DNA of 64,000 bases from Candidatus Omnitrophota bacterium (GCA_022703585.1 JAKLDJ010000002.1:155413-219412); one strand, 5' to 3'. Counted from the stretch's first letter, positions 1 through 44,300 are shown. Numbers and translations are program-made. Notes: a model not told the origin generated them from the sequence alone.

Positions 1-578
1 ATGATTCCGATGACGGGCCCTTGGGAAATTCCGAATTCCCGCCGCATTCTTAATTTTTCCGCATCATCTACAATCGGAAAATCGGCAAGATCAATACCGT
101 TATGAACGAGAGAAATCTTTCTACCGTCCACTCCAAAATCATTCATCAAATGTTTCCGGACCGGCTCGCTAATGGCAATAATCCCCTGGCCCCAGCAGGG
201 AAACATCTTTCTGGAAAGCCGTGGTTTAAAGAAACCGTGGCAGGTAGTAACAAAGGGCCGCCGGGAACTTCTGCTTAAGAATGCCGCCGCCACCTGGGTT
301 ACGCGCGTGTGAGTATGCAGGATATCAATATTCTCTTCACGAATAAAACGATTAAGGCGCGGCAAGGAAAGATAAATTTTTGGGCTAATCTCTGATTTGG
401 TGCGGATATCAACCGTAAAATGTTTAAAACCCAAGCCCTCTAATTCCTCGACTCTGTTGCCACCGCTGGTCGCCACCGATACATTGTGGCCGATTCTCTT
501 TAGCCCCTTTGCCAGCGTAAACAGATAGCTGGTAATTCCACCCGTATTTAAATGGTTCGCAAGAACAAGGATGTTCAT
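1..578 (-). CDS. Glycosyltransferase family 1 (GT4-like), C-terminally truncated by window start; its start codon overlaps the stop of the upstream gene (ATGA)
   Basis: Reverse translation from 576-578 reads MNILVLANHLNTGGITSYLFTLAKGLKRIGHNVSVATSGG..., a GT4 N-terminal Rossmann pattern; the frame stays open to position 1. Confidence 0.75.
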   Translation of the reverse strand, partial: MNILVLANHLNTGGITSYLFTLAKGLKRIGHNVSVATSGGNRVEELEGLGFKHFTVDIRTKSEISPKIYLSLPRLNRFIREENIDILHTHTRVTQVAAAFLSRSSRRPFVTTCHGFFKPRLSRKMFPCWGQGIIAISEPVRKHLMNDFGVDGRKISLVHNGIDLADFPIVDDAEKLRMRREFGISQGPVIGI

Positions 579-2677
579 TTCTTTATTCCGATCAGTTTAT
601 CTATCTCACGGGCAACCTGCTCGGGGGTAATTTCTTCCATGCAGGCGTATTTTGCCTTTTTGCAGCGAGAGCTATAGCAACCGGCACAGTCCATATCTTT
701 CTTTAAAACCGAATAATGATCCGACGGCGGCAGATGACGGACGGGATCCGTGGGACCAAAAATAGCCACAAAAGGAACTCCCATGGCCGCGGCAATATGC
801 ATCGGCGCCGAATCGGGAGTAATATACACCTTGGTACGCTTAATCAAAGCTGCAAGTTGCAAAATATCAGTTTTACCGACAAAATCCGCGGGCTTTGTTT
901 TTGTCATCGTCAAAAGTTGGCGCACCAGCTCCTTGTCTTTTTCCATGCCGGTAATCAGCACCCGGATATTCTGGTTGGAAAGTACGTCGCACAGCCGGGC
1001 AATGTGTTTAAGCGGCCAATTTTTAGTGGGCCACTTGGCCGACGCGGCAATGTTAATCCCGACGATGTTGGGGGCATTGCCCAGCCATTCCCCGTCTAAG
1101 AGTTTTTGCACGTAGAGCTCATCCTGGCTCGACGGCCAAAGCTCAAGAGAAACACGCCCCGCCGGAGTAACCCCCGCCATTTTCAGGACTTGGAATTGAT
1201 GCGCGACCGCCGGCATGGGGATCCCGTCATCTTCGATTGCGTGGGATAAAAGAAATCCCCACTTGCCGTTATCATAGCCGTAACTTTCCAAAGGAAAACT
1301 TAAAAACGCCAACAGATGGCTCTTGCGGTTATTCTGAAAATCAATAACCTTGTCAAAATGATAGCGCCTCAATTTCCGGGAGAATTTAAATAGGCCCATC
1401 CAGCCCTTATCTTTATCCTTGGGATCAAAAATCAGCAGCTCATCAATATACGGACAACGCTCTAAAACCTCCCGTGATTCTTTGCCCACCAAACAAAATA
1501 TTTTGGCATGCGGATATTTCTCGCGTAGCATCTTTAAAGACGGCGTTACCAAAACCACATCGCCGACAGAGCTTAATTTGATGACCAGGATATTTAAAGA
1601 ATTTAAAACTTCTTCGTAGACCTTCATTGTGGCATTGGCCATCTGATCAAGGGTAAAATGGGATTCGAGTTTCTTGCGTGCCTGCACTGTCAGGCTTAAG
1701 GCCAGTTTTGGATCCCGAAGAATCTTGATAACTGCCCGGGCCATTTCATCAGTATCTTTAGGCAAAACTAAAAGTCCGGTTTTACCATCCTCCACAATCT
1801 CGGTAACCCCTCCGACCTTTGTGGCGACTACCGGCACATCAGCGGCATTCGCCTCCAGGATAACACGCCCAAAAGCCTCTTCGGTCGTCGTCGATAAAAC
1901 AAGGACATCCGTTTTTGCCAAAAGCTGCGGGATGTCTTTGCGGTTACCAAGAAATTCTACGTAATCTTTTAAACCCAGCCGCTGCACCAGGACCTTAAGA
2001 TCCTGTTTGTATAATTCTTTTTTGGCCGGGGCATCGCCAATAATCCATATCTTGACATTGGGAACAGAGCGCACGACCTTAGCCATGCTTTTAAGAAAAT
2101 AGGTATGCCCTTTTAGCGGCGTGATCCTTCCGATCATGGAAATGACCCGTTGCGTCGGCGACTTTTGGGGAGATTCGGAAGAATTAAACTTTTCCAAATC
2201 AACGCTTCGGGCAATACGACGGATATTTTCGTGAGGCACGTGAAAATCATCAATCATGTGCCGGCCGATGACGTCGCTGGGGACAATGACCCTCTTGGCC
2301 CAGCCCATCACCCGGCTAAACAGATGCATGGAATAATAACCGTGACAGGTGGTCACAAATGCCGTTTTGGTCTTCCGGCAGGCAAAAAAGGCAATCCACG
2401 CCGGTACACGCGAACGGGCATGGACGATATCAATACGCTCATCTTCGATTATCTTCTTAAGCGCCTTGATGCACTTTAAAATATTCTTTAAGGACTTTTT
2501 GTGAACGGGAAGTTTATAGTGCTTTGCGCCGATTCGTTCTAAGTCAACGATTAACTCTCCTCCGTCGGAAACAACGACAACCCCGTGGCCCTGGGAAACC
2601 AGGTGTTTGGCAATGTCAACCGTCCCGGTCTCCACTCCACCCACGTTTAATTCCGGCAATATCTGCAAAACTCTCAT
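575..2677 (-). CDS. Bifunctional LPS-core glycosyltransferase: N-terminal GT4 domain fused to C-terminal GT9 (ADP-heptose:LPS heptosyltransferase-like) domain
   Basis: 700 aa; N-terminal half has the GT4 EX7E region (EAFGRVILEANAADVPVVATKVGGVTEIVEDGKTG); C-terminal half begins ILVIKLSSVGDVVLVTPSLKMLREKYPHAKI, the classic RfaF/RfaC GT9 N-terminus. Confidence 0.8.
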   Translation of the reverse strand: MRVLQILPELNVGGVETGTVDIAKHLVSQGHGVVVVSDGGELIVDLERIGAKHYKLPVHKKSLKNILKCIKALKKIIEDERIDIVHARSRVPAWIAFFACRKTKTAFVTTCHGYYSMHLFSRVMGWAKRVIVPSDVIGRHMIDDFHVPHENIRRIARSVDLEKFNSSESPQKSPTQRVISMIGRITPLKGHTYFLKSMAKVVRSVPNVKIWIIGDAPAKKELYKQDLKVLVQRLGLKDYVEFLGNRKDIPQLLAKTDVLVLSTTTEEAFGRVILEANAADVPVVATKVGGVTEIVEDGKTGLLVLPKDTDEMARAVIKILRDPKLALSLTVQARKKLESHFTLDQMANATMKVYEEVLNSLNILVIKLSSVGDVVLVTPSLKMLREKYPHAKIFCLVGKESREVLERCPYIDELLIFDPKDKDKGWMGLFKFSRKLRRYHFDKVIDFQNNRKSHLLAFLSFPLESYGYDNGKWGFLLSHAIEDDGIPMPAVAHQFQVLKMAGVTPAGRVSLELWPSSQDELYVQKLLDGEWLGNAPNIVGINIAASAKWPTKNWPLKHIARLCDVLSNQNIRVLITGMEKDKELVRQLLTMTKTKPADFVGKTDILQLAALIKRTKVYITPDSAPMHIAAAMGVPFVAIFGPTDPVRHLPPSDHYSVLKKDMDCAGCYSSRCKKAKYACMEEITPEQVAREIDKLIGIKK

Positions 2678-4647
2678 ATAACTTCTCTTGCTGCCTCCAG
2701 GATGACATCGTTGTCGTTCAGGATTTTGGTTTTAATTTTCTTGCGCGCCATGGAGGCGATAACCTCCCCCACGTCTTTTTCCTTCGATAAAACAATATAC
2801 CCACGGTTATGGAGATTCTCAATGAACAAATCGTGCTTGTCCTTCCTCCAGAATGATTTTCGCTTCTTTAAAGGAGGAAAAACAATGACGTCCTTGCCCG
2901 AAGTGGCAGCCTCGGAAACCATAGAGACGCTGTCCCCGGAAACAACAAGAATATCGCAAAGCCCTAGGATGCCTCCTACCGCCTCGGGGATATTGCTGCG
3001 GTTAGCCAGGATGAGCATACGGCAGCGGGGATGATTCTTTATCTCTCTCTGGAGAATATTTTCTATTTCCGGGGGCGTGCGCCGCGACGTCGTTATCAGA
3101 ATATCGGCATCATTTTGCTCGCAGGCATTTTTAACCTGGCCAATCAGCATCTTTATCTGTGCTTCGCCGATGAAATGTTTCTTGGTGTCGCCGCCCAGCA
3201 GAATGCCGACCTTGGTTTCTTTACCGCTTTGCAGATGAGAAAATCGATTTAAAAGAAGACGAACCTGCTCTTTAAGATACGCCTTGTTAATCAAATTCGG
3301 GGCCCCCTGGGCATAAATAACCCTGCCTCGTATTCTCTTATTCTTGGGATTGTCGTGCTGCGGCAAAACCACCAGGTCAAAACGCCGGAAACCCAAAATG
3401 CCGGGCTTTAGAATGCTGACGCTCTTAGCCCGATAGTCACGCGACAAAAAGAAATTGACCGGCGCCGCCGCCGACCCGCAGGAAACGACAAAATCCGCTT
3501 TGACACTTGCGATATCGAGGAATGATTTTCTGGTCAAGAACCACTTTAAATACCGTAAACGGCCCTGGCAGAAAAAAGGATGCGAAACGAAACTTAAAAA
3601 GGCGATCATTTTTTCCGATAAACGGCTCTTAAAACAGACATCAACCGTTTGCACGTCGCACTCGATGCCGCGCTCGGCCAGAGCGGTTTTAATCGTTTCC
3701 GCGACAGCCTGAGATTGCCTTAGATGCCCTGCCTTACCGTCATTAAGAATAACCGCCGTGGATTCCCGGGAATATTTCCAGATTTTATAAAACCACATAT
3801 ATTCGGAAGGATATTTCGTAATAAAATTTTCCATGAGGCTTATAACTTTATTTAAGTTGGAGATAACATCCCTTTCGAGATCTCCGGTCTTAATCAGTTC
3901 CAGGGCGGGATGAATAACCAGGCGGTGCTGAGAATTTTTATCCCGGATAATAATCGAAAAACATATCGGGACATCATACTTAATTCCCATCTTGATCGCC
4001 CCGACCGACATCGATGCCAGCCGCCCGAAGAATTTAACCAATGCGCCGTCGCGTCCGCCCTGGTCCACCACCATGCCGATGATTTCGTTTTTACGCAGGC
4101 TCTCGATAATTTCCCTGGTGCCGCGGCCGCGGGCGATAACCACCGAACCGCTATGGAGGCGAAGGGAATTGAGCAGTTCATCCAGCTTGGTAAATCTGGT
4201 CTGGGGCTTGGCCACAACCCGGTAAGGATGCCCGGTTAAAACACTCATCAAATTCGACATCTCCCAACTGCCAAAATGCATCGCTAAAAGAATCAGCCCC
4301 TTATTCTTTTTGAGGGCTTCATCGACATTCTCCCGGCCCTCAAGCTTAACGAATTTCTCTGCGCCGAGGCGCTTAATCACGGGAACCCGCAAAAGTTCGA
4401 TAATATTTTCCCCGTAATTCTGGAATATCTTTTTAACGATCCTTTTGATTTCGCTGGGTTTCTTGGTTTTGGCAAAGGCGATCTTTAAATTCGCATAAGC
4501 CATGGCCTTATGCTTTCGGTCCAAATAGTAGCCGATAAGCCCTATCGCACGGCCTAGCCCTAAGGCAGTGTCCACTGGAAGCCGGCACACGATAAAACCG
4601 ACAACCTGTGCTGCGCCATAGGCACAATAGTCCCTGATAGCTTTCAT
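2674..4647 (-). CDS. Lipid A late acyltransferase (LpxL/HtrB family) fused to a C-terminal ELM1/DUF1022-like GT-B-like domain
   Basis: 657 aa; N-terminal ~300 aa carries the LPLAT motif AMHFGSWEM (HX4E) as in LpxL/LpxM; C-terminal ~340 aa (GILLGGDTKKH...ITTSRRTPPEIE...) resembles the bacterial ELM1/DUF1022 family often found beside lpxK/waaA. Confidence 0.7.
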   Translation of the reverse strand: MKAIRDYCAYGAAQVVGFIVCRLPVDTALGLGRAIGLIGYYLDRKHKAMAYANLKIAFAKTKKPSEIKRIVKKIFQNYGENIIELLRVPVIKRLGAEKFVKLEGRENVDEALKKNKGLILLAMHFGSWEMSNLMSVLTGHPYRVVAKPQTRFTKLDELLNSLRLHSGSVVIARGRGTREIIESLRKNEIIGMVVDQGGRDGALVKFFGRLASMSVGAIKMGIKYDVPICFSIIIRDKNSQHRLVIHPALELIKTGDLERDVISNLNKVISLMENFITKYPSEYMWFYKIWKYSRESTAVILNDGKAGHLRQSQAVAETIKTALAERGIECDVQTVDVCFKSRLSEKMIAFLSFVSHPFFCQGRLRYLKWFLTRKSFLDIASVKADFVVSCGSAAAPVNFFLSRDYRAKSVSILKPGILGFRRFDLVVLPQHDNPKNKRIRGRVIYAQGAPNLINKAYLKEQVRLLLNRFSHLQSGKETKVGILLGGDTKKHFIGEAQIKMLIGQVKNACEQNDADILITTSRRTPPEIENILQREIKNHPRCRMLILANRSNIPEAVGGILGLCDILVVSGDSVSMVSEAATSGKDVIVFPPLKKRKSFWRKDKHDLFIENLHNRGYIVLSKEKDVGEVIASMARKKIKTKILNDNDVILEAAREVI

Positions 4648-5735
4648 TCCTGACCTTTTTTAGATGATGCCTCTAAAACTTTCTTAAGAAATTCTTCTTT
4701 GCCGCGGGTAATCTCAATCTTGATATTCAAACTTAGCAAAGCCAGGCCGCTGCCAAATTCCCCCAGGAACTTAGTCAGCTTAACCGCATCTTTTTGAGTG
4801 GTAAGAATCGTCCAGGCATTATTCTCTTTGCAGTAACGGATAATTTCTTTTATATCATGAAGGCGGTAGAGATGATGGTCCATAAAAGAAAAAGTTTTTC
4901 TCACCTCGGCCCCTAAATTAACAAGCAACGCTTCAAAAGACCGCGGATCGGCTATACTGCAGAAAGCGCCGATCGATCTTCCTTTCAGGATAGATAGCGG
5001 ATATTTGCGGCCCTCCACCCGCAGGTCGGTCAAATCGACAGGTCCATGGATCGCTTCAACAATAGGGCAATCAGGATTAACCGCCCGCAACTTGTCTCTG
5101 ATAAGTTCCAGATTTTGTTTGCCTAAATCGGTCTTAGTCAGAACGAACATATCCGCCCGGGACAAAGACGTGACGGATTCCCGTAAAATCCCGCGCGGAA
5201 TCAAGTATCCATTTCCGAAAGGATTGGTGGTATCGATCGCCACGATATCCAAATCTCTTCTTAAGCGCCAATGTTGAAAGCCGTCATCCATTAGGAAAAC
5301 ATCCATCGGATAATCATTCATTGCCTCGCGCGCTTTTTTGATCCGGTTCTTTCCCACCATGACCGGGATGCCCTTAAGGGCCCCGCTTAACAACTTGGCT
5401 TCATCACTGAACCTTCCCTCGGGACCCAAGGAAACAAGTTTTCCGGTCATATAACCACGCGTCAAGATCACCGGTTTTAAATTATTCTTTTTAAGAAACT
5501 CAGCGATAAATTCCACCAGAGGGGTTTTACCGACACCGCCGACAGTCATATTGCCGATAGAGATAACCGGTTTCGGCAATCTGTATCTGCGTAAAATACC
5601 GATCCTATAAAACCATAAGATAATACCGACCAGAAACCCGTAAATGAAAGACAATAATAAAAGCAAGGCCTTAAGGATAGATGCCGTAAAACCATTCACG
5701 CGATCAGTCATTAAGCGGAAAAAGTATTCTCTCAT
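4644..5735 (-). CDS. lpxK: Tetraacyldisaccharide 4'-kinase
   Basis: 363 aa; N-terminal TM followed by the P-loop GNMTVGGVGKTP typical of LpxK; lies within the lipid A cluster. Confidence 0.85.
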   Translation of the reverse strand: MREYFFRLMTDRVNGFTASILKALLLLLSFIYGFLVGIILWFYRIGILRRYRLPKPVISIGNMTVGGVGKTPLVEFIAEFLKKNNLKPVILTRGYMTGKLVSLGPEGRFSDEAKLLSGALKGIPVMVGKNRIKKAREAMNDYPMDVFLMDDGFQHWRLRRDLDIVAIDTTNPFGNGYLIPRGILRESVTSLSRADMFVLTKTDLGKQNLELIRDKLRAVNPDCPIVEAIHGPVDLTDLRVEGRKYPLSILKGRSIGAFCSIADPRSFEALLVNLGAEVRKTFSFMDHHLYRLHDIKEIIRYCKENNAWTILTTQKDAVKLTKFLGEFGSGLALLSLNIKIEITRGKEEFLKKVLEASSKKGQE

Positions 5736-5746
5736 AGCTTCTTCCT

Positions 5747-7045
5747 TTAACTTTTTTGAAAAAATTTTCTAATGATCGTAGCCGTACGATCCGTCGCCCC
5801 CGAATGTTTTTGGGCAACAGCCCTGGCTAGAGCGCCTAAATCTTCCATCTTTCGCGGATCCCTTAAAAGCTCCCTAACGTTTAACAACAACCCGTCGGCA
5901 TCTTTAGCCCGAATAACCGCGTTTTCCCGTAAAAAAAGATCGACAACATCTTTAAAATTCTCCGTATAGGGCCCAATCAGAATGGCCTTGCCTAAGGCAG
6001 CGGGCTCTATCATATTTTGCCCGCCGTGAGCCGACAGACTCTTACCCACAAAAACCAGCTTCGCCAATCCGTAAAGAGAGCGCAATTTGCCGATCGTATC
6101 AACAACGATAACCGTATCGCGCACTACCGTCGTGCTATTGACCTGCGAAAGCCTTAAGGGAGTCAGCCCCTTTGCCTCGATTAATCTAGCCACTTCACTT
6201 GTCCGTTCAATATGCCGCGGGGCAATCATTAGACGCAAATCTTTAAATTCGCCCGATAACGATTTAAAAATATTTAAAACAATCTCCTCTTCTCCGGGAT
6301 GAGTACTGCCGGCAATCCACAGAGTTTCGTTGCCAATAAACCCGAGACTCTTTAAATCTGCCGATCCCGCCGCCGGCAGATCGTCAAATTTAACGTTCCC
6401 GATCTGGTGCACTTTTTCCTTAGGAGCCCCCAACGTAATAATCCGGTCACAATCCGCACGGCTTTGCATGCAGAGAATATCAACGCCGCTTAGAATTCTT
6501 TTCATCAAATATTTAACCAAACGATAATTCTTAAAAGCCCTATCGGAAATCCGACCATTGACAACCGCAACCGGAATACGATTCTCCCTTAGGCATGAGA
6601 ATAAATTCGGCCATAGTTCGGTTTCCATGGCAATATACATTTTGGGCTTAATCCGGGCAACGTAACGCCGGACAATAAAACTAAAGTCCAGCGGCGCATA
6701 AATAAGAATATCATCGCCGGAGATAATCTTAGAGGCCACCTCGTAACCCGTTTTGGTAACCGTCGAAATAACCAAGCGATGCCCGGGAAAAACGCTCCTT
6801 AAATGCTGCGCCAATCTCGAAACGCCCTGGACTTCGCCCACGCTGACCGCATGGACCCAGATATTCTCTTTTTTCGCCAAAGCCGTTTTTAATTCTTCCG
6901 AAAACTTGCCAAAACGCATAGAAAAATCCGGATGCCATTTTCTTTTAACAATCAAATAGGGAAAATAGATAAGCGAGAAAATTGCAAAGATTAAATCGTA
7001 GATAACCGTCATAACTTTTTGTTTCCGTTCTTTAACAATTAACAA
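5747..7045 (-). CDS. waaA: 3-deoxy-D-manno-octulosonic acid (Kdo) transferase
   Basis: 432 aa; WVHAVSVGE motif and GT30 architecture. Confidence 0.85.
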   Translation of the reverse strand: MLIVKERKQKVMTVIYDLIFAIFSLIYFPYLIVKRKWHPDFSMRFGKFSEELKTALAKKENIWVHAVSVGEVQGVSRLAQHLRSVFPGHRLVISTVTKTGYEVASKIISGDDILIYAPLDFSFIVRRYVARIKPKMYIAMETELWPNLFSCLRENRIPVAVVNGRISDRAFKNYRLVKYLMKRILSGVDILCMQSRADCDRIITLGAPKEKVHQIGNVKFDDLPAAGSADLKSLGFIGNETLWIAGSTHPGEEEIVLNIFKSLSGEFKDLRLMIAPRHIERTSEVARLIEAKGLTPLRLSQVNSTTVVRDTVIVVDTIGKLRSLYGLAKLVFVGKSLSAHGGQNMIEPAALGKAILIGPYTENFKDVVDLFLRENAVIRAKDADGLLLNVRELLRDPRKMEDLGALARAVAQKHSGATDRTATIIRKFFQKS

Positions 7046-30141: not shown

Positions 30142-31971
30142 TTACATCTTAAACTGGGTCTCATACAGACGCTGGTAAAGGCTGCAGGAAGCCATCAAAT
30201 CCTCATGCTTGCCTAACCCGACTATTTTACCTCCTTCAAGCACTACGATTTTTGTGGCTTTTTTGATAGTAGATAACCGATGGGCGATGCAGATAACCGT
30301 CCTGCCCTCCATAAGTTCATCCAGAGCCTCCTGGACAAAACGCTCCGACTCAGAGTCAAGCTGCGAAGTCGCCTCATCCAAAATAAGGATGGGCGGATTC
30401 TTTAATATTGCCCGGGCAATGGCAATGCGCTGCTTTTCTCCTCCTGAAAGCCGAAAACCCCTGTCGCCGATACGGGTATTGTATCCGTCAGGCATGTTCA
30501 TGATAAATAAGTGAGCAAAGGCCTTTTGGGCGGCTGACTCAATTTCTGTCATTGAGGCCTCTAAATTCCCGTAGGCGATATTGGCTCTTACCGTGTCATT
30601 AAACAGAATAGTTTCTTGGGTCACTAACCCCATCTGGCCGCGCAGCGATTTAAACGAGACCTCTTTTAAATCAATGCCGTCGATTGCAACACTACCGACT
30701 GACGGATCATAAAAACGGGGGACAAGATTAACTAACGTAGACTTTCCCGCTCCCGTGGGCCCGACAATAGCAACGAGATCGCCGACCTTAATTTCAAGAT
30801 TAATATCTTTGAGGACCTGGCCGGATTCGGTGTCATAGCCAAAATTCACCCCGCGGATGTCAATATTCTGACTGATAACCGGCAAATCCTGGGCATTCAC
30901 TTTCTCGACGACGCTTGGGCGAGAATCCAGGACTTCGTAAATCCTCTCGCTGGCCGCCAGGGCCTGCTGGTTAATCACGTGGACATTGGCTAATTTCTTT
31001 AGGGGGCTAATCAACGACATGGTGGAACCGAAGAAAAGCACAAAAACGCCGAACGAAATACGGCCGTTAATAACCTCGCTACCCATCCAATAACAGATGG
31101 CAACGCCGAAAAAAGCACCGATCAATTCGGTAATGGGCCCCAAGGCCAGATTGCGCTTGATGGATTTCATTTTCAGTTTATAAAAATCCTGGTTTTGTGA
31201 TTTAAACCGGTTCGATTCATATTTTTCCATGCAAAAAGCCTTAACGATGCGCACGCCCGAAATCGTCTCGATCAAAAGCGAATTGATATCGGCCATTTTT
31301 TCCTGGGAGCTGCGTGATATTTTCTTTAATCTCCTGCCAATGTATTTCATGGGAAGGGCAACGACAGGAAATAAGATAAGAACAACAATGGCCATTTTGG
31401 GAAGGGACATCTTAAAACAAACAAACATCACAAAAGAGGCAAATATAACGATTCGAAATGACTGATAGACAAGGTCCGTGACGCCATAGGAAACGGCATT
31501 TTCAACCACCTGCACATCATTGGTAATGCGGGCAATGAGCTCGCCGCTGCGCTTCTTGCTGAAGTAATCTAAGGAAAGGTTTTGTATGGTCTCATAAAGC
31601 CGGGAACGCATATCCCGCATAATGCGCTGGGAGGCATCGTTCATCAAATACCCGTACCAAAAACCGAAAAACCCTTTTAAAATAAACATAATGATAACAC
31701 CGACGATCATCCACTTTAAAAGGGTCATGGAATCGGTAGCGTTAATTTTCTCGATAATGGACGCCAAAAAGGCAGGGATTTTCCCGGGAACAATGATTTT
31801 ATTGTTGCTGAGGATTTTATCAGTCATCGGCACCAGCAAAGACAGCTGGAAACCGTCAAAGACAGCCGAGAGGAACATGCATAAAGTAGCCAGCCCCAGG
31901 ACTTTGGTATTACCCTTTAAAAACCGTAAAAGCTTGAGATAATTTTTCATGGATGCGGTGCATATTACCAT
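30142..31971 (-). CDS. msbA: ABC transporter, fused permease/ATPase (MsbA-like lipid A/lipid exporter)
   Basis: 609 aa; six N-terminal TM helices; Walker A GPTGAGKST and signature LSGGEKQRIAIARAIL. Confidence 0.8.
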   Translation of the reverse strand: MVICTASMKNYLKLLRFLKGNTKVLGLATLCMFLSAVFDGFQLSLLVPMTDKILSNNKIIVPGKIPAFLASIIEKINATDSMTLLKWMIVGVIIMFILKGFFGFWYGYLMNDASQRIMRDMRSRLYETIQNLSLDYFSKKRSGELIARITNDVQVVENAVSYGVTDLVYQSFRIVIFASFVMFVCFKMSLPKMAIVVLILFPVVALPMKYIGRRLKKISRSSQEKMADINSLLIETISGVRIVKAFCMEKYESNRFKSQNQDFYKLKMKSIKRNLALGPITELIGAFFGVAICYWMGSEVINGRISFGVFVLFFGSTMSLISPLKKLANVHVINQQALAASERIYEVLDSRPSVVEKVNAQDLPVISQNIDIRGVNFGYDTESGQVLKDINLEIKVGDLVAIVGPTGAGKSTLVNLVPRFYDPSVGSVAIDGIDLKEVSFKSLRGQMGLVTQETILFNDTVRANIAYGNLEASMTEIESAAQKAFAHLFIMNMPDGYNTRIGDRGFRLSGGEKQRIAIARAILKNPPILILDEATSQLDSESERFVQEALDELMEGRTVICIAHRLSTIKKATKIVVLEGGKIVGLGKHEDLMASCSLYQRLYETQFKM

Positions 31972-32049: not shown

Positions 32050-32982
32050 ATGGACAAAGTTAACGTCGCCGTCATCGGCATAGGCCACTTAGGTTCACGG
32101 CACCTTAAGGTTTACAGTGAACTAACCGACAAAGTCAATATTGCCGGTATCTGCGATATTAATCTGGAACGGACCGGGCACTTTATCCACCACTATAAGG
32201 TAAGCTTATTGAATGATTACCGGCACCTTTTAGGCAAGGTGGATGCTGTAAGTATCTGCGTACCTACGGTTAATCATTTCTCGGTGGCAAAGGAATTTTT
32301 AGAGCACGGCGCGCATGTCCTGGTTGAAAAACCCATTACCACCACCCTGAAAGAAGCCGACCAGCTCATTGCCATCGCCAAAAGAAAGAAACTCAAACTT
32401 CAGGTCGGGCATGTCGAGCGATTTAATTCCGCCTTCCAGGCCATCCAAGACACGGCTAAAAATCCGCTTTTTATCGAGTGTCACCGGCTGAATCTATTTC
32501 CCAACCGTTCTTTGGATATCGGGGTCGTCATGGACTTGATGATTCATGATATCGATATTGTCCTGGGGCTGGTGAATTCAAAAATCAGGGATATCAGCGC
32601 CGTTGGAGTCAAGGTGTTGACCAACCTAGAAGATATTGCCAATGTCCGGCTGGTATTTAAAAACGGCTGCGTCTGCAATCTTACCGCCAGCCGCGTTTCC
32701 GACGATGTCATGCGCAAAATCCGGATTTTCCTCAACGATACCTACATTTCTTTGGATTACGTCAAACAGGAGGCCTTCGTTTACAAAAAGAACGGACTCG
32801 CTATTTCCAAGAACGCCCTCCCTATCGAAAAAGAAGAGCCCCTAAAGAAAGAGCTTGAATCGTTTATCGATTGTATCCGCGAAGACAAGAAACCCATCGT
32901 CTCCGGAGTCGAAGGCAGACAAGCCCTCGAAATTGCCTTACAGATCAGCAAGAAAATATGGAAAAATCCCGCAAACATTTAA
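32050..32982 (+). CDS. Gfo/Idh/MocA family NAD(P)-dependent oxidoreductase; possible UDP-GlcNAc 3-dehydrogenase (GnnA-like) given its position directly upstream of lpxB
   Basis: 310 aa; N-terminal Rossmann VAVIGIGHLGSRHL. Confidence 0.8.
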   Translation: MDKVNVAVIGIGHLGSRHLKVYSELTDKVNIAGICDINLERTGHFIHHYKVSLLNDYRHLLGKVDAVSICVPTVNHFSVAKEFLEHGAHVLVEKPITTTLKEADQLIAIAKRKKLKLQVGHVERFNSAFQAIQDTAKNPLFIECHRLNLFPNRSLDIGVVMDLMIHDIDIVLGLVNSKIRDISAVGVKVLTNLEDIANVRLVFKNGCVCNLTASRVSDDVMRKIRIFLNDTYISLDYVKQEAFVYKKNGLAISKNALPIEKEEPLKKELESFIDCIREDKKPIVSGVEGRQALEIALQISKKIWKNPANI

Positions 32983-34097
32983 TCATCGTTGCCGGAGAAG
33001 CCTCCGGCGATATGCACGCCGCTTGCCTCGTACAAGAAATCAAATCTATCAATCCAAATATCCGTTTCTCGGGGTTAGGCGGCAAAAAGATGCAGGCTGC
33101 CGGCGTCGAGCTTTATGAAGATTTGACTAATCTGGCAGTCGTCGGATTCGTGGAAGTCTTTAAGCATATACGAGAGTTTAGAAGACTTTTTTATCTGATC
33201 CTTAAGAAAGCGCAAGAAACAAAAGCCGATGCCGTCATTTTAGTCGATTATCCCGGATTTAATTTAAGGCTGGCTCGGGAATTAAAAAAGCTCGGCATCA
33301 AGGTCATTTATTACATCAGCCCCCAGGTCTGGGCATGGAAAGAAAGCCGGGTTACGCTCATCAAGCAATGCACGGATAAAATGCTCGTCTTTTTTGAATT
33401 CGAGAAAGAATTTTATGCGCGCCGCGGTTTAAATGTGGATTTTGTGGGTCACCCGCTACTCGATTCCATCAAGGTCGAAACTTCGAGAGAAAACTTTTTA
33501 CAGTCAATCGGATTCTCTAAAGATAAACGAACAATCGCCGTTTTGGCCGGTTCGCGCCGCAAAGAAGTCGAACAACTCCTTCCTGTCATGCTGGCAGCCA
33601 GCCAAATCCTTTACACCAAAAACAATCAAATACAATTCCTGGTCTTAAAATCGCCGACAACCGATAAGAAAACCGTCGAAAAATTCGTCAATCAAAGTCG
33701 ATTGCCGGTAAAAATCATCGATGGCCAAACGTATGATGGAATTAACGCTTCGGATTTTTGTATGGTAGCGTCGGGAACAGCCACCTTGGAGACAGCCATT
33801 TTACAGAAACCGATGGTGGTGGTTTACAAAACTTCTTTTTTAACCTGGGTTTTAGCCAAGCTTTTCGTCAAGATACCCTGTATCGGATTGGTCAATGTGG
33901 TCGCAGGAAGAAAAATCGTTCCCGAATGCGTGCAGTTTGATGCGACAGCTGAAAAAATAGCCGAAAATGTAAGGGCCATTTTTGACGTCCCGTCAAAAAT
34001 GGCCCAGGTCAAATCCGACCTCGCCCGCGTTAAATCTTCCCTTGGCGCCCCCGGCGCCTCAGCCCGTGCCGCCGAGATTATTTCTCAAATAATATAA
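32958..34097 (+). CDS. lpxB: Lipid-A-disaccharide synthase
   Basis: 380 aa from the MEKSRKHLIIVAGEASGDMHAA start (the ORF track begins at an upstream in-frame ATG); GT19 N-terminal signature; overlaps the Gfo gene by 25 nt. Confidence 0.85.
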   Translation: MEKSRKHLIIVAGEASGDMHAACLVQEIKSINPNIRFSGLGGKKMQAAGVELYEDLTNLAVVGFVEVFKHIREFRRLFYLILKKAQETKADAVILVDYPGFNLRLARELKKLGIKVIYYISPQVWAWKESRVTLIKQCTDKMLVFFEFEKEFYARRGLNVDFVGHPLLDSIKVETSRENFLQSIGFSKDKRTIAVLAGSRRKEVEQLLPVMLAASQILYTKNNQIQFLVLKSPTTDKKTVEKFVNQSRLPVKIIDGQTYDGINASDFCMVASGTATLETAILQKPMVVVYKTSFLTWVLAKLFVKIPCIGLVNVVAGRKIVPECVQFDATAEKIAENVRAIFDVPSKMAQVKSDLARVKSSLGAPGASARAAEIISQII

Positions 34098-34122: not shown

Positions 34123-37100
34123 TTAAGCCAAAAACACATCCATCCGCGAGGCTTTATTACTGCGAATGTTTTCGGCATGTTCCGAGAGAATAACAGCTGC
34201 GGAAATCGTGATTTCTTTCTGGTGCGGATAATGGATAACGATTCTTTCAATCACTGCCTTGCGAGCGCCAAAGGTATCCAGGCGCTTGGGATTATGGTAA
34301 ACCACTAAGGTCGAGCCTAAAAAGTTAAAGGCATAGGTATTTTTCGGTAAAACAATTTGTTGCCAACGGTTATTTTTATCGAAATACGCTGCGGCGGTTT
34401 CTTTTTTGGTAAATAACCATCCCGGCAAAACCGGCTTGAGGCTTAAAACAAGTTTCCCTTCTTTGTCCAGGTAAAAGGGGCGCTCGCCTGTGTTCATCAT
34501 CAGCCACAGGTGCACAAGTTCGGCGGTCGTTCCGCTTAATCGCGCCACAAAACCGCGCCCATGCAAATGAGAATCTTCATAAGCGCTGCTGACGAGAAAA
34601 GAAGAATTTTCCAGGATGCTGCGTCCGTAAGAATCCGCGTTCAAAAAAGGCACAAGCGTGGTCTTAAAATTCTCGTAAAACTCCTTATGAAGCCCGCAGC
34701 GCAAAAGCTCCAGGAGAAATTTGTATTCCATGTGGCTCCATATCGATTCATTCTCCAGCCACCCCGGCGGAAATATGCGTGCGCGTCCGATTTCTTCCGT
34801 CTCTTTTGACAGCGAAGCATTCACCTTGTACATTTTAAGCTTCTTATCAAAAATCGCACTTTTCTTAACGCCCTCATAAATCTTTGCGGCCTCGTTATGG
34901 CTTTTAGCAACCTTGAGCGCGTGGACAAACCCTTCCAAGAATAACGGCAAGGCGCGGCGCCTGAAATTGAGCGGCCGGATATACGGCAAACCCTGGGGAT
35001 TAACCCCCTCGAGCATTTCGTATTGCGTAACCTCGTGAACAAAATAGGTCACGTATAAACCGTTTTTGTCCTTCGCATGCGCGATGGCCTTGTCGGTTCG
35101 GTTGATCACTTCTTTAAGGAAATTTCTGACATTCGAAAGCGCTATAGTTTTTTCCCGGCCGCTGATCCCTTCTCTTATGCGAGAACGATAATTTTCCTTA
35201 AGGTCGTTAGATTTCTTCCAGAAAGAAACCGCATCATATTCGGCTGCGACGATTTCGCTTAAATCCAGGATAAAATCAAAAAGCTCTTCAAAAATCTTAA
35301 ATTCAAAATTATCGCTTAAGCCCAATTCTTCAAGCGCCTGCAATAAAAACACGCACAGCCTTTTAAGTTCAAATGTTTCCGCGGTCGAGGAACCGGTTAG
35401 GCCCGGCAGGCCGTTTAAGGCATCATACCAGCCCGGCTTGCCGGCCTCCATTTCAATCCCGATACCGCCGGGATCAAAAGAGGCGGCTTTGTTAGCGATG
35501 ATACAAAGAATCTTTCCGAAAAGATTCGTATAATAGACAGAACCGCTGCCACCTTCAGTTTTTAATTTGTTATTTTCGCCGTCTTTCCCGGCAGAAATCT
35601 TTCCTTTGGCAATAGAATGATACTGCCGCGGGCCATAGGAAGTCAAAACATACCGCTGGTCTCTCGGCAAAACATAATGAGCATTGTGATAAAAACTAAA
35701 AGCATTATTTTCCAGCAAAACCCGTCGTTTTTCTTCGGGATAGATACTAAAGAAACTCTCCAAAAGATCAAGATTATACGTCCAGTGGTCCACCCAGAAA
35801 CCATGGTCGTGCTCGGCCAGTTGATGTTTGCGGCAAAATGCCAGCACATGACACAGAAAATCTTTAGGTGATGCCGTCAGCTGAATTCCTTTTTGTTCAA
35901 TGTCCGACAGCAACTCTCCCGGAGAAAAATTGCCGGTTAGCAATTCACGCAGCTGTTCCAGATGTGCGGATTTAACGTAACCTTTTAATAATTCGCTAAG
36001 CTTCTGCGGTTCATCAAGACAAAACATCGTGCCTTTAGTCACCAAAGGATTGTATCCGTCGGCTTGAATAAGGCTGAAGAAATCGACTATGCTACTGTCC
36101 TTGACATCCTGGTTAAACCAGATATCGTTTCTCCGGTTTTGATTAACATCCCGATAGTTGCCATTGCCTTGAGAAAGATAGGTGGGCGCAAGGACAAAAT
36201 AATTGTAGTCTCTTTCCGGATCCCCATGCTTACGGCTGAAGACATTAAAGACAATTTTTCCGTCCCGGGTCTCCATCGAAATAGGCAGGCCGCCGCGCAA
36301 AACATTATCCAAGAATGTCTGCCCGCAGTACAAATCAAATTCCCGCGAGGAACTCGCCGTAAACACAAAATTCTTTATCTCATCGATAATTTCTTTATTG
36401 CGTTGCGCCTTTCCTTGAATGTACCCTTCTGCCAAACTATGATGAACGATGCTGTTCAAATGCTTTAGGCTGCGGATATTGCCGATCAGCGAGGTAATTT
36501 CTTTTTGTGCTCCGGCCTTTAAGCTAAACGCGGCAAGGCTCATCGCGCAGGGTGTTTTTTTACTGCTCGTCTGCTTTAAGGGGACTTTAAAATTCCTTTG
36601 CTCCAAGAAACCTTCCGGCAAGACAAGGTCGGAAGAACTGCCAAAAATACATGTCGGCCTCACAATAGGATCCAATAACTTTAGTTTCTTCCCCTCACGG
36701 CTAAAACTAAAATAGAAATTCCCTTCCGTAACATGCTCTACCCGGGGCGTATCGGAAATAGCAACTTTTAAATTATAATACGGCGCTTTATTTTCCAAAT
36801 TACTGACTTGATTCCACGCCTCCGCTGTTCGTGACATGTTTTTAAGCAGCCAGTCATTGTGCCCAAAAGGAATGATAGCCGGCATACCGTCAATGAGCTC
36901 ACAATTTAAGGATTTAGAGCGGGAAATATTTTTGACGGTAACGCACCGTACCAGCGCCGCATAGGATTCCTCGGGGAGCGTAAAATAGTTAACCCGCACC
37001 GAAATCCCCAGCGTTAAATTCGTCTCCTCTAAGGTGAGATCGTGCGAGGTAATGATCATTTTTTGCTGCAGCTTAAAGGCCTTATTGGGTAAATTATTCT

Positions 37101-37407
37101 GGAAGGGTTCGTAAAAGATTGTCTTGGCTCCCTGCTTAACCTTAATAAAAGTCCTAAAGCCGTGCAGCGAAGTCATCCGGTAGGCCTTGTTGGCCGGCTG
37201 AAACTCCATGATCGCTTTGTTTTTGCCTTCGATACCAAAACTGGTAATACCCTGGCCCCGATTGACATAAAAAACCCACATCGGGATGCCCCAAACCCCC
37301 GCGATGCCGGGAAAGAAATTGGTAAACAGCTTGGCGTGATTGTAGTTTTCGATAACAAACTCGCCCTCACTGCCTAAGGAATATTTGATAGTTTTATTCA
37401 CGTTCAT
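34123..37407 (-). CDS. Large soluble protein of unknown function; possibly glycoside hydrolase/phosphorylase-like
   Basis: 1094 aa uninterrupted ORF convergent with lpxB; no signal peptide; vague resemblance to GH94-type N-terminal beta-sandwich, not confirmed. Confidence 0.6.
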   Translation of the reverse strand: MNVNKTIKYSLGSEGEFVIENYNHAKLFTNFFPGIAGVWGIPMWVFYVNRGQGITSFGIEGKNKAIMEFQPANKAYRMTSLHGFRTFIKVKQGAKTIFYEPFQNNLPNKAFKLQQKMIITSHDLTLEETNLTLGISVRVNYFTLPEESYAALVRCVTVKNISRSKSLNCELIDGMPAIIPFGHNDWLLKNMSRTAEAWNQVSNLENKAPYYNLKVAISDTPRVEHVTEGNFYFSFSREGKKLKLLDPIVRPTCIFGSSSDLVLPEGFLEQRNFKVPLKQTSSKKTPCAMSLAAFSLKAGAQKEITSLIGNIRSLKHLNSIVHHSLAEGYIQGKAQRNKEIIDEIKNFVFTASSSREFDLYCGQTFLDNVLRGGLPISMETRDGKIVFNVFSRKHGDPERDYNYFVLAPTYLSQGNGNYRDVNQNRRNDIWFNQDVKDSSIVDFFSLIQADGYNPLVTKGTMFCLDEPQKLSELLKGYVKSAHLEQLRELLTGNFSPGELLSDIEQKGIQLTASPKDFLCHVLAFCRKHQLAEHDHGFWVDHWTYNLDLLESFFSIYPEEKRRVLLENNAFSFYHNAHYVLPRDQRYVLTSYGPRQYHSIAKGKISAGKDGENNKLKTEGGSGSVYYTNLFGKILCIIANKAASFDPGGIGIEMEAGKPGWYDALNGLPGLTGSSTAETFELKRLCVFLLQALEELGLSDNFEFKIFEELFDFILDLSEIVAAEYDAVSFWKKSNDLKENYRSRIREGISGREKTIALSNVRNFLKEVINRTDKAIAHAKDKNGLYVTYFVHEVTQYEMLEGVNPQGLPYIRPLNFRRRALPLFLEGFVHALKVAKSHNEAAKIYEGVKKSAIFDKKLKMYKVNASLSKETEEIGRARIFPPGWLENESIWSHMEYKFLLELLRCGLHKEFYENFKTTLVPFLNADSYGRSILENSSFLVSSAYEDSHLHGRGFVARLSGTTAELVHLWLMMNTGERPFYLDKEGKLVLSLKPVLPGWLFTKKETAAAYFDKNNRWQQIVLPKNTYAFNFLGSTLVVYHNPKRLDTFGARKAVIERIVIHYPHQKEITISAAVILSEHAENIRSNKASRMDVFLA

Positions 37408-41326: not shown

Positions 41327-44300
41327 TTAAAGTTTTTTTGCCCGAAAGGCGAGAAAAAGTACACCGGCCAAGAAGATCATAAGGCCAAGAAGGCTGACCG
41401 CGCGGCTAAAGAAATAGAGCTCAGGCTTAAATTCAAACTTTACCTGATGAATTCCGGGATCAATCGCACAGGCCATAAAATTATAATTAGCGATATAAAT
41501 CGGAACTTGCTTGCCGTCGACATATGCCCTCCATCCCTTCGCGTAAGAATCGCCGAACAATAAGATAGCCGGTGCCCGCGCACTTACTTGCGCCTCCACC
41601 CTATCGCTGTCGGAGTTTTTAATTGAAACAAATTCCGATTTTGGCAATGACATCATCCATTGATCTGGCTGTATCCCGTTAGTCTTGGGCGCTTGATTCA
41701 ATAAAACTTTCTCTCGAAAGTTAAAAGACGGGTCTTTCAACAAGTCCAGCGTTTTCCTCTCATCCTCAATGACTTTATAAGAATAAAAAAGCGTCAGACG
41801 CGATAAGGCGCTCGGCCTTTCCATAGGCAAGCCGGCATCATTAAATAAATAGCGCACTGCCGATAAGTCGAGAAATCGTTCGCTATCAGGCACATCGCCC
41901 GGATAAATCAAAATCGTTTCCGGAGAGTAGCCAAAGTTGCTGATAAAGCGTGTAAACCGTTTAGGCATGTACCCAAAGGCGCCGGTGTAACCGGACACCT
42001 TAAAGACCATATTCTTGTTTTTGTTCAAGCCCGCCTTGTGTAATAAATCTGCCCGGTAATTCACTAAATCCATCTTGGATTTTAGATTCTGGTCTATATC
42101 GCCGTAAGGAAAACGTGCCCGATAAAAGACTTCCCTGGTCGGAGGCGGAGCAGAAATATAATCAAAGCGTGCGTTAAATACCATCAAATCAAAAGCCGTG
42201 ACCGCAATAAAAACATACACCAGGTAATTTCTGGGCAAGGCCCTGATTTTATGAAGCGCGACCGCAATGATTCCCAACGCCACGACAGAAAAGAAAATGA
42301 TCTGGTCAAAAAACATATTGATGAAATAGGCCCGGTCAAAATCCGGCACATCCAAGAATTTCCGTAATAACGGAGCGATGAGAGCCAAGCCAATCATAAT
42401 CGCCATGCCCATGAGAGCACCATGCAATACAACAGGATTGCAGGCTGCCGTTTTTATTTTTTGGGAACGCATATAAATAGATATTTGTGCCGCTGTAAAG
42501 ACAACAGCCAGCAACAGCATAAAAGGAACGGTCAAGAATTCCGTCGTGCCTTCTTTTTTTGCTATCGGCCCTGCCAATGACACCGCGCTGATAAAGAAAA
42601 TAGCAACCCATAAAAGAATTAAGAAAATCCCTCTGCCCCATAACAGCAAGATATCGTAAAGTTTTCGTCCGCACTGTTTGAGGATAGCTCGAACCACCAG
42701 CCAGAAAATAACAAAAATAAGAATCAGCCGGACATACGGCGTTAAAGACGGAAAAAGATAGACAACGATAACCGCAACAAGAGCTTGGATTGCTGCAAGA
42801 ACGGCAAAAAAACTGTTTCCCGTCTTATTAAGATTCAGCTTATTTTTCTCCAGATAAATTCCCGTATAGCCGGCCAGCATGACAATCCCGATAGGCAAGA
42901 TAACAATTTGATACATATGGTGATTGAACGGGAAAAATAAAATACTTAAGACCCCCCAGAACGGCTGGAATAAAAGCCCGATAGCCAGGGCAGTAAAAGT
43001 ATAAATTTTCCAAAACCGGTGACATCCTTTTGTTTTTATAAAAAGATTCAACAGCAAAAGCAAGGCCGGTAATATCCCGAAATAGACAAAGAATGTATTG
43101 TGGTCATTGGCCGCGATGGTGGCCTGCTTATAGACAAAATTCAGGTTGTCCGAGGCCAGCGCATTAAGCCCGTACTGGCCGGCGATGGAAGGGGAAAAAA
43201 GCCGTACCAGCATAAAGAAACGGTCATGGATACTAAAGAAATTCCCGGCGATACGGTTGCTGTCCGCGATCCCGAACGCACAAGGGATAATGCGCACCGC
43301 GGCAATCAGGAATCCGGTTAAAATACTTGCCCCCACCAAAGAAAAATTGCGCAGGCGGGATTTTATTTCTTTATTAACGCTTAAAATTCTGTAAACCGAA
43401 ATCACGAGAATAGAAACAAAGGCATAAAATATAAAAGCAACATTGGCCGACGTGAGGATAAAAGTGGCGGCCGCGGCCAGCAGAAGAAAATTCCAACTCA
43501 TGCGGCGGCCCGGCATCGACCATACCAGATATAAAAACAGTGTCATCGAAAAAAACAAGGAAATGGTCGGAAAGATCGTAAAACTAAAAATCAGAAAAGA
43601 ACACAGCTGATAAGTAATCGAACAAAAAAGTGCCCACGAGCGTGATCCTAATTCACGAACAAATAAGCCATAGGCACAAAGCCCCAAGAACAATACCTCC
43701 AGAAATACCCGAAACGTCATCGCCGGCAACACATGCTTATCGGAAAATAAAAAGACAACCCAATTCAGCGGATAATAAATCATGTTCCAGTGATTGGAGA
43801 AAAACGGCATGCCGTCGAGATTATACGGATTCCAGAGGCAAAGCGATTGCCCCATGATAATATTCCAGAAATTATGTTTGGAAAAAAGAAACAGCGGCAA
43901 GATCTCGCCAAAATTATCCGTGCTCGAGACCAAAATATTGCCGCGGGTCACAAAAGGATAAAAGATAAAAACCGTAAGCAAAAGATGGGCAAGCACGGCA
44001 GCATAGGCAGGAAGGGAATTTCTTTGTGTTGATACAACATCTGATTTTGGCCGGTTTCTGTTTAAAAAAAGATTGAAGACAAGGGCGAGATAAAAACAAA
44101 ATACCATAAGCGAGAAATAAAGAATAACAACCGCCGCCAAGACCGGATATAGCCGAGCAGAATCTTTGTATGCGGAATCAACCGCCCTTCCGCTGGCGAT
44201 ATGACCGCTGATGATAACATCCCCAAAATAGGTCTTGGGCTCCGAAGAGTCCCTCAAAAGAAGGCCGACATTTCCCCCTGCGGACAATAGCGGAACCTCA

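Follow-up and report, generated by a model that had tools for sequence, protein, structure and literature searches.

A late acyltransferase fused to a KdoT-like ELM1-family glycosyltransferase domain is conserved across Candidatus Omnitrophota

In Acinetobacter baumannii, GtrOC1 (A1S_2903), a protein of family PF06258, was implicated in 2024 in the addition of the third 3-deoxy-D-manno-oct-2-ulosonic acid (Kdo) residue, KdoIII, of the lipooligosaccharide core (PMC10936431). In vitro work with the purified protein, published in December 2025, identified it as KdoT, a cytidine monophosphate (CMP)-Kdo:Kdo2-lipid IVA transferase (PMC12856342); it had been placed in Mito_fiss_Elm1 since 2014 (PMC4172580). 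KdoT is membrane-associated without transmembrane helices, prefers tetra-acylated over hexa-acylated substrate and is inactive on lipid IVA; its activity requires R180, which belongs to a conserved SRRT motif, and no single catalytic base was found, the D8A, H13A, H109A and D110A variants all being active (PMC12856342). In vivo it needs GnaT (LpsB), an enzyme of glycosyltransferase family 4 (GT4) that adds N-acetylglucosaminuronic acid to KdoIII, and a distant Rickettsia homologue complements delta-kdoT (PMC12856342). Here we describe a single protein of 657 amino acids that joins an LpxL-type late acyltransferase to a KdoT-like PF06258 domain (LpxL::ELM1; double colons denote fusions), encoded in a 64,000-nucleotide stretch of DNA from Candidatus Omnitrophota bacterium (GCA_022703585.1 JAKLDJ010000002.1:155413-219412), which was analysed at its full length and is referred to as the window.

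The open reading frame (ORF) occupies exactly 2674-4647 of the window on the minus strand and starts with ATG (Table 1). A first-pass annotation had described it, without giving the strand, as one ORF of 657 amino acids between a GT4-GT9 gene and lpxK-waaA, combining a late acyltransferase domain that carries the HX4E motif HFGSWE with a C-terminal GT-B-like domain of about 340 amino acids related to ELM1/DUF1022. The ORF, both domains and, through Pfam and NCBIfam matches, the neighbours are all as it described. In the Pfam searches that it had suggested, each half scored far above the gathering score: PF03279 (Lip_A_acyltrans, LPLAT superfamily) with 159.3 bits against a cut-off of 22.3, over profile positions 21-294 of 295, and PF06258 (Mito_fiss_Elm1, GT-B clan CL0113) with 178.7 bits against 27, over positions 1-293 of 304. 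An AlphaFold2 (AF2) model of the whole protein, built on an alignment of 64 sequences, has a mean predicted local distance difference test score (pLDDT) of 91 and a predicted template modelling score (pTM) of 0.85.

The catalytic motif of the N-terminal half is intact, with H124, G126, S127, W128 and E129 invariant in the 64-homologue alignment, and HFGSWE aligns with HFGTWE of A. baumannii LpxM (PDB 5KN7), in which E127 is the catalytic residue. This half matches LpxM both in sequence (5KN7, phmmer E 2e-13) and in a Foldseek comparison with the PDB (5KNK, E 5.6e-14, TMt 0.69), in which mycobacterial PatA was also found (E ~1e-11, TMt ~0.8), and shares 24% identity with A. baumannii LpxL (E 2e-16). 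The AF2 model begins with two long helices, at residues 2-22 and 25-42, in moderately hydrophobic sequence. The predicted activity of the domain is secondary acylation of Kdo2-lipid IVA dependent on acyl carrier protein (acyl-ACP). Within the 64-kb window no second LpxL or ELM1 gene was found.

Modelled alone, the C-terminal domain reaches a pLDDT of 91.5 and retrieves the same generic GT-B matches as the whole-protein model. Foldseek matches in the PDB at probability 1.00 are GT-B enzymes, namely MGD1, MshA, TreT and uridine diphosphate-N-acetylglucosamine 2-epimerases; BshA also matched. A search of PDB sequences with the domain found no homologue of solved structure. S521-R522-R523-T524, G485, G486 and E579 are invariant in the 64 homologues. 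By BLASTP the domain is 29% identical to KdoT over 290 amino acids (E 3e-18), and the alignment brings together the motifs DGKAGH, PxHD, GG, TTSRRTP and DSVSMVxEA and places the invariant R523 on KdoT R180. We took the KdoT sequence from a piece of A. baumannii chromosome that PLSDB lists as a plasmid; its ilvE neighbour and the positions of D8, H13, H109-D110 and S178-T181 fit the published numbering. DGKAGH, including H13, is common to Acinetobacter KdoT and a KdoT-like domain of Methylophaga, described below, and is absent from five other PF06258 members aligned. The statement in the first-pass annotation that the function of this family is unknown is out of date, given the published KdoT activity (PMC10936431, PMC12856342); no literature was found under the name 'DUF1022'.

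With the C-terminal domain as the query, exhaustive HMMER searching yielded 2560 cluster representatives at E<=1e-3, of which 259 reach E<=1e-30. The best 150 representatives are mostly LpxL fusions, together with some standalone proteins of ~360 amino acids and some LpxK::ELM1 proteins, and the SRRT motif is near-invariant among them. Motifs of this type occur throughout PF06258, with SRRS, SPRT and SHRT variants in members from other contexts. SRRT was considered as evidence of Kdo specificity and then given less weight, as it is present across PF06258 members from other contexts. A standalone Omnitrophota paralogue of 369 amino acids (P0213, L004:10001-11110), in an unrelated context of radical S-adenosylmethionine and ResB-like genes, has SLRT in place of SRRT and, to judge from its sequence, may have diverged in function. 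On plasmid pPNP1 of Pseudomonas sp. JS425 (L088:3585-5927), a protein of 780 amino acids matches PF06258 only at residues 441-723, after an unannotated N-terminus of 440 amino acids. This gene lies amid those for a cytidine diphosphate-alcohol phosphatidyltransferase, a phosphocholine cytidylyltransferase and an aspartyl beta-hydroxylase-domain protein, and represents a further, different ELM1 fusion in a lipid context.

Within Omnitrophota the fusion is phylum-wide and ancient. When 5.8 billion proteins were searched through a word index, more than 120 distinct clusters of full-length proteins (~655 amino acids) were recovered at 50-91% identity, all with both Pfam domains. They stem from assemblies of NCBI, JGI, ENA and Logan, and every one that bears an organism name is from Candidatus Omnitrophota. 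The phyletic survey that had been proposed for the fusion was carried out on GTDB species representatives with a 7-sequence alignment as the query and confirmed 566 relatives; the loci examined were the best 80 of these, all of them Omnitrophota, so the scan is silent on other phyla. Seventy-one of the 80 encode the complete fusion. The other nine comprise four genes cut by contig ends, three that start at a contig edge, one split gene (L033) and one LpxK::ELM1 fusion (L075). Omnitrophota is a phylum of the Planctomycetes-Verrucomicrobia-Chlamydiae (PVC) group, and some third-party-annotation metagenome-assembled genomes among the best 80 are labelled 'uncultured Planctomycetales'.

The junction itself is among the conserved parts of the protein. 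In the AF2 model the last helix of the LpxL domain enters beta-1 of the GT-B domain directly, essentially without a linker. Across the 64 aligned homologues, no column between residues 285 and 305 contains an indel; W285, Y287, K288, W290, K291 and Y292 are invariant and the stretch WFYKIWKYS is near-invariant. The first-pass annotation had raised the concern that two genes had been joined by a frameshift, and in L033 the two domains do stand in separate ORFs. Against an assembly or sequencing artefact are the clusters recovered from independent NCBI, JGI, ENA and Logan assemblies, the complete genes in most species representatives, and a junction that is highly conserved, free of indels and, at the DNA level, without a long homopolymer. 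Because the fusion, its synteny and its junction are conserved across independent assemblies, a frameshift is excluded as the explanation, and we give an artefact of any kind a negligible chance.

On the minus strand the gene order is waaA, lpxK, the fusion gene, a gene for a 700-amino-acid protein with GT4 and GT9 domains (575-2677) and a GT4 gene cut by the window edge. The lpxK stop overlaps the start of the fusion gene in an ATGA, as the stop of the fusion gene does the start of the GT4::GT9 gene, which suggests translational coupling on both sides. Nearly all of the best 80 GTDB loci share the order xerC-waaA-lpxK-fusion-GT4::GT9-GT4-GT9-GT9(-GT9). In L001 the cluster runs on to a PfkB kinase, kdsB, kdsA and kdsD, and in L002 PfkB and then kdsB are found at the locus edge.

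The GT4::GT9 gene is itself a conserved fusion, of a GnaT/LpsB-like GT4 domain and a GT9 domain resembling heptosyltransferase II, and the pairing is kept in almost all of the best 80 loci that extend past the LpxL::ELM1 gene. The four best PLSDB matches of the GT4 domain are A. baumannii LpsB/GnaT proteins (35% identity over 99% of the query, E 9e-62), and the next organism follows at 4e-40. In a direct BLASTP comparison with GnaT the identity is 36% (E 5e-80), and E267 and E275 of the EX7E motif align with GnaT E283 and E291. The A. baumannii lpxL gene (annotated as 'lauroyl acyltransferase') is the immediate upstream neighbour of lpsB/gnaT, in the same orientation; no GT4 neighbour was seen for the other A. 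baumannii acyltransferase paralogues inspected. Acinetobacter thus has lpxL-gnaT with kdoT elsewhere, and Omnitrophota has lpxL::kdoT-like followed by gnaT-like::GT9. Five A. baumannii 'plasmid' records in PLSDB (NZ_CP077849.1, NZ_CP064203.1, NZ_CP104448.1, CP040041.1 and CP035931.1), 0.56-4.1 Mb in length and carrying the chromosomal loci ilvE-gtrOC1 and lpxL-lpsB, appear to be mislabelled chromosomes or chromosome fragments. In ten of the Omnitrophota loci (L040, L043, L046, L048-L050, L052, L058, L064 and L077), one ORF of ~2 kb matches the GT9 query at 2-3 successive places, so that additional downstream genes of the heptosyltransferase family seem to have fused in these loci as well.

Comparable fusions occur outside this lineage. 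The cultured gammaproteobacterium Methylophaga pinxianii carries on plasmid pWTT2411 a protein of 674 amino acids (WP_226069883.1, annotated 'ELM1/GtrOC1 family putative glycosyltransferase') with PF03279 and PF06258 domains separated by a linker of ~75 amino acids. Its gene is followed by GT4, GT4, GT9 and O-antigen ligase genes. Here the Acinetobacter proteins are much closer relatives: the LpxL domain is 34% identical to A. baumannii LpxL (E 4e-59), the KdoT-like domain 35% identical to KdoT (E 5e-55) and the GT4 protein 46% identical to GnaT (E 5e-118). The M. pinxianii protein and the window protein share only 23% identity overall and, on the basis of this distance, the two fusions probably arose independently. 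The plasmid region (L091; NZ_CP095734.1 151372-168097) is a full island for lipopolysaccharide (LPS) core and lipid A modification that carries lpxL::kdoT, a gnaT-like GT4 gene, GT4 and GT9, and also encodes an O-antigen ligase, EptA, a PAP2 phosphatase, a diacylglycerol kinase and a protein of the lipoteichoic acid synthase family.

Some sister Omnitrophota lineages encode LpxK::ELM1 proteins (~700 amino acids, Pfam-confirmed; L003:3438-5543, L075:4919-7147 and P0167); their loci lack LpxL, and the GT4::GT9 gene again follows. P0197 is another LpxK::ELM1 fusion. Among the 120 best matches to the Methylophaga protein, 86 are LpxL::WaaA proteins of ~730 amino acids (PF03279, then PF04413; in the range P0280-P0391) from gammaproteobacterial metagenomes. 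Other matches are LpxL::GT9 (P0281), tandem LpxL::LpxL (P0275 and P0276) and LpxL::EptA (P0393); literature searches found no description of these four fusion types. LpxL therefore recurs as the N-terminal partner of enzymes working on the same lipid, most frequently a Kdo transferase. The Kdo dependence of Escherichia coli LpxL is established, and the recurrence of LpxL-Kdo transferase fusions is consistent with it.

We consider it probable, with room for doubt as to the sugar, that the Omnitrophota protein is bifunctional and membrane-anchored, acylating Kdo-lipid IVA and also glycosylating it further, most probably with Kdo. Once LpxK and WaaA have acted, two catalytic domains in one polypeptide would share a lipid intermediate as their substrate on the cytoplasmic side of the inner membrane. 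The LpxL-type domain, with H124 and E129 as its HX4E dyad, would take a secondary acyl chain from acyl-ACP and attach it to Kdo-lipid IVA. The GT-B domain would glycosylate the Kdo region, most probably with a further Kdo from CMP-Kdo, as KdoT does, after which the translationally coupled GnaT-like domain of the GnaT-like::GT9 protein would extend the core. Through the fusion, a glycosyltransferase that is peripheral in its standalone form would be tied to the membrane and to an enzyme that shares its substrate, at a fixed stoichiometry of 1:1. By analogy, the preference of KdoT for tetra-acylated substrate suggests that glycosylation precedes or accompanies acylation. The sequence comparisons and models establish the domains with their folds and motifs, the conserved fusion and synteny, the homology to KdoT and GnaT and the parallel fusions; we infer that CMP-Kdo is the donor, which position accepts the sugar, which reaction comes first, that the N-terminus anchors the protein in the membrane, and any substrate channelling. 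The first-pass annotation had proposed that the ELM1 domain, of a GT-B-like family, is a transferase with lipid A or Kdo2-lipid A as its substrate; for Kdo2-lipid A this is supported by the fold, the similarity to KdoT and the neighbouring genes, and its alternative of a phosphoryl transferase found no support. Its remark that the family is frequently encoded beside lpxK/waaA is true within Omnitrophota and fails for the proteobacterial members inspected: in Acinetobacter the gene lies beside ilvE, and those of Roseomonas, Microbulbifer, Pseudomonas, Tistrella and Methylobacterium are in other contexts.

Several observations weigh against the assignment of Kdo as the sugar, and it is possible, at clearly lower probability, that an enzyme of the same bifunctional architecture transfers a different sugar (a hexose, a hexuronic acid or another ulosonic acid) to the Kdo or lipid A region. 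The contexts of PF06258 genes are diverse: the paralogues GtrOC14, 19 and 22 are found in variable Acinetobacter outer-core loci (PMC4172580), and some members in Microbulbifer, Roseomonas and Pseudomonas lie in unrelated polysaccharide or lipid clusters. Being family-wide, the SRRT-type motif marks the family and is no proof of Kdo use. Identity to KdoT is low, and by phmmer the C-terminal domain is closer to an uncharacterised Tistrella protein, the closest PLSDB member (3.5e-24), than to KdoT (8.8e-15) or the Methylophaga KdoT-like domain (4.3e-7), so that orthology to KdoT is no more than possible. The acyltransferase half is similarly hard to place within its family. Its best NCBIfam match, NF006270, reaches 146.7 bits against a cut-off of 248 and all 17 of 17 matches fall under their cut-offs, so that acyl chain length and position, and the choice between LpxL, LpxM and LpxP, are not assignable. 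In favour of Kdo are the GnaT-like partner immediately downstream (36%), given that the acceptor of A. baumannii GnaT is the Kdo added by KdoT, and the DGKAGH motif shared with KdoT and the Methylophaga domain to the exclusion of the five other members aligned. The complementation of delta-kdoT by a Rickettsia homologue that is itself distant (PMC12856342), and the analogous LpxL::WaaA proteins, in which LpxL is joined specifically to a Kdo transferase, point the same way. We also counted kdsB, kdsA and kdsD at the end of the L001 cluster (kdsB only in L002) for the Kdo-adding reading.

Two other roles for the ELM1 domain seem improbable. As a non-catalytic scaffold or regulator it would recruit LPS enzymes to LpxL, much as plant ELM1, a known adaptor (PMC10936431), recruits dynamin; that no single catalytic base emerged in KdoT, with all four variants active, would fit such a role. 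The donor-site motifs SRRT, GG and SxSMxSE are nevertheless invariant in the 64 homologues, the models predict a GT-B cleft with high confidence and KdoT alone is catalytically active in vitro, and we regard a scaffold as quite unlikely. The still more improbable alternative is that the domain replaces one of the canonical glycosyltransferases of the Raetz pathway, LpxB or WaaA, whose GT-B fold it shares; its gene also stands among lpx genes. Canonical waaA lies two genes upstream and canonical lpxB elsewhere in the window, and because both are present such a replacement is excluded; moreover, KdoT is inactive on lipid IVA.

If the protein is the acylating and Kdo-adding enzyme that we favour, a bolder version can be formulated, which we put forward as a speculation that we expect to fail more readily than to hold. 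The protein would be a rigid, linker-free machine with two active sites, in which acylation and the addition of an extra Kdo are obligatorily coupled on one Kdo2-lipid IVA molecule, by channelling or through a checkpoint, and Gram-negative bacteria in general would build late lipid A and the inner core with a physical complex of LpxK, WaaA, LpxL, KdoT and GnaT. A recurring logic for such a complex can be seen in the LpxL::KdoT protein of Methylophaga, the LpxK::KdoT proteins of Omnitrophota, the LpxL::WaaA proteins (~86 clusters) and the adjacency of lpxL and gnaT in Acinetobacter. The complex, if real, could explain why KdoT depends on GnaT in vivo.

Table 1 Positions of the fusion gene, its parts and related lipid A and core genes in the window
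Feature	Position	Strand	Evidence
lpxL::ELM1 (KdoT-like) fusion ORF, 657 amino acids	2674..4647	-	ORF call and Pfam; AF2 pLDDT 91, pTM 0.85
N-terminal LpxL/LpxM-type late acyltransferase domain (residues 15-291)	3775..4605	-	PF03279 E 1.6e-46
HX4E catalytic motif HFGSWE (H124...E129, residues 124-129)	4261..4278	-	Aligned with LpxM HFGTWE
Domain junction (residues 285-305)	3733..3795	-	AF2 model; 64-homologue alignment, indel-free
C-terminal ELM1/GtrOC1 (PF06258) GT-B glycosyltransferase domain (residues 306-646)	2710..3732	-	PF06258 E 2e-52
SRRT motif (S521-T524)	3076..3087	-	R523 = KdoT R180; aligned with KdoT TTSRRTP
lpxK (tetraacyldisaccharide 4'-kinase)	4644..5735	-	PF02606 E 2.5e-78; TIGR00682 179 bits, cut-off 92
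waaA (Kdo transferase, GT30)	5747..7045	-	PF04413 E 1e-57; NF004388 E 4e-101
GnaT/LpsB-like GT4 domain (residues 1-360 of the GT4::GT9 gene product)	1598..2677	-	LpsB similarity
GT9 (heptosyltransferase-family) domain of the same gene	575..1597	-	PF01075 E 1.6e-35; TIGR02195 139 bits, cut-off 134.6
Next GT4 gene of the operon, cut at the window edge	1..578	-	GT4 gene at the same position in L001/L002 and most of the 80 loci
Canonical lpxB	32871..34097	+	PF02684 E 8.6e-101

Elsewhere in the window, lpxB is preceded on the same strand by an overlapping ORF (32050-32982) for a GFO/IDH/MocA oxidoreductase. This enzyme might be GnnA-like, which would point to lipid A of the 2,3-diamino-2,3-dideoxyglucose (GlcN3N) type. 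An MsbA-like ABC transporter gene (30142-31971) is divergent from it, on the strand opposite to lpxB. Three large minus-strand ORFs (34123-37407, 46456-48270 and 56990-59206; 1094, 604 and 738 amino acids) have no Pfam match at E<=1e-5, and an ORF of 1157 amino acids (41327-44800), which adjoins GT2 and methyltransferase genes, has only a weak C-terminal match to YfhO. On the minus strand, 52155-53735 encodes a fusion of Memo-like and AMMECR1 domains (526 amino acids).

Full-text literature searches found no account of LpxL-ELM1 fusions or of LPS assembly in Omnitrophota, and the KdoT papers mention no fusion (PMC10936431, PMC12856342). The proteins themselves are already public, under names that cover a single domain ('ELM1/GtrOC1 family putative glycosyltransferase' or 'lauroyltransferase'), a practice that hides a late acyltransferase from reconstructions of Omnitrophota pathways. 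Because KdoT is already characterized, the fusion lends support to a published function and does not raise a new question; such gene fusions provide independent 'Rosetta-stone' evidence that enzymes of the ELM1 family act on the LpxL/LpxK intermediate. They extend the KdoT/GnaT 'split Kdo' inner-core pathway, known from Acinetobacter and with Rickettsia homologues, to an uncultured phylum of the PVC group and to Methylophaga. As the M. pinxianii fusion sits in a cultured strain, the predicted dual activity, and whether acylation comes before or after the addition of Kdo, are directly testable. As a speculation, plant ELM1, if derived from such an enzyme, may tie to the lipid A-like pathway of plant mitochondria.

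Set against the systems described so far, the Omnitrophota protein is a new domain architecture of two known enzyme families that extends a known pathway; it is not a new kind of system. It resembles LpxL, LpxM and LpxP (PF03279; A. baumannii LpxM, 5KN7) in its HX4E motif, fold, domain length and two N-terminal helices, and differs from them in bearing a C-terminal glycosyltransferase of 360 amino acids. With A. baumannii KdoT it shares PF06258 membership, a GT-B fold, motifs and the pairing with a GnaT-like GT4 enzyme. KdoT, however, is a standalone peripheral protein of ~296 amino acids encoded in the outer-core locus beside ilvE, whereas the Omnitrophota domain is ~60 amino acids longer, with an insertion of ~25 amino acids placed by BLASTP after the first beta-alpha unit, is fused to LpxL without a linker and is encoded between lpxK and a gnaT-like gene. 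Plant mitochondrial fission protein ELM1, the namesake of PF06258, belongs to the same Pfam family but is a eukaryotic adaptor for a dynamin-related protein with no shown enzymatic role (PMC10936431). The M. pinxianii protein has the same order of PF03279 and PF06258 domains, likewise followed by a GnaT-like GT4 and a GT9, and is set apart by its linker, its plasmid location and its closeness to the Acinetobacter enzymes. The LpxL::WaaA proteins also carry LpxL at the N-terminus and a Kdo transferase at the C-terminus of one polypeptide; there the second enzyme is a canonical GT30 WaaA rather than a family-level homologue of PF06258, and Omnitrophota keeps WaaA as a separate gene.

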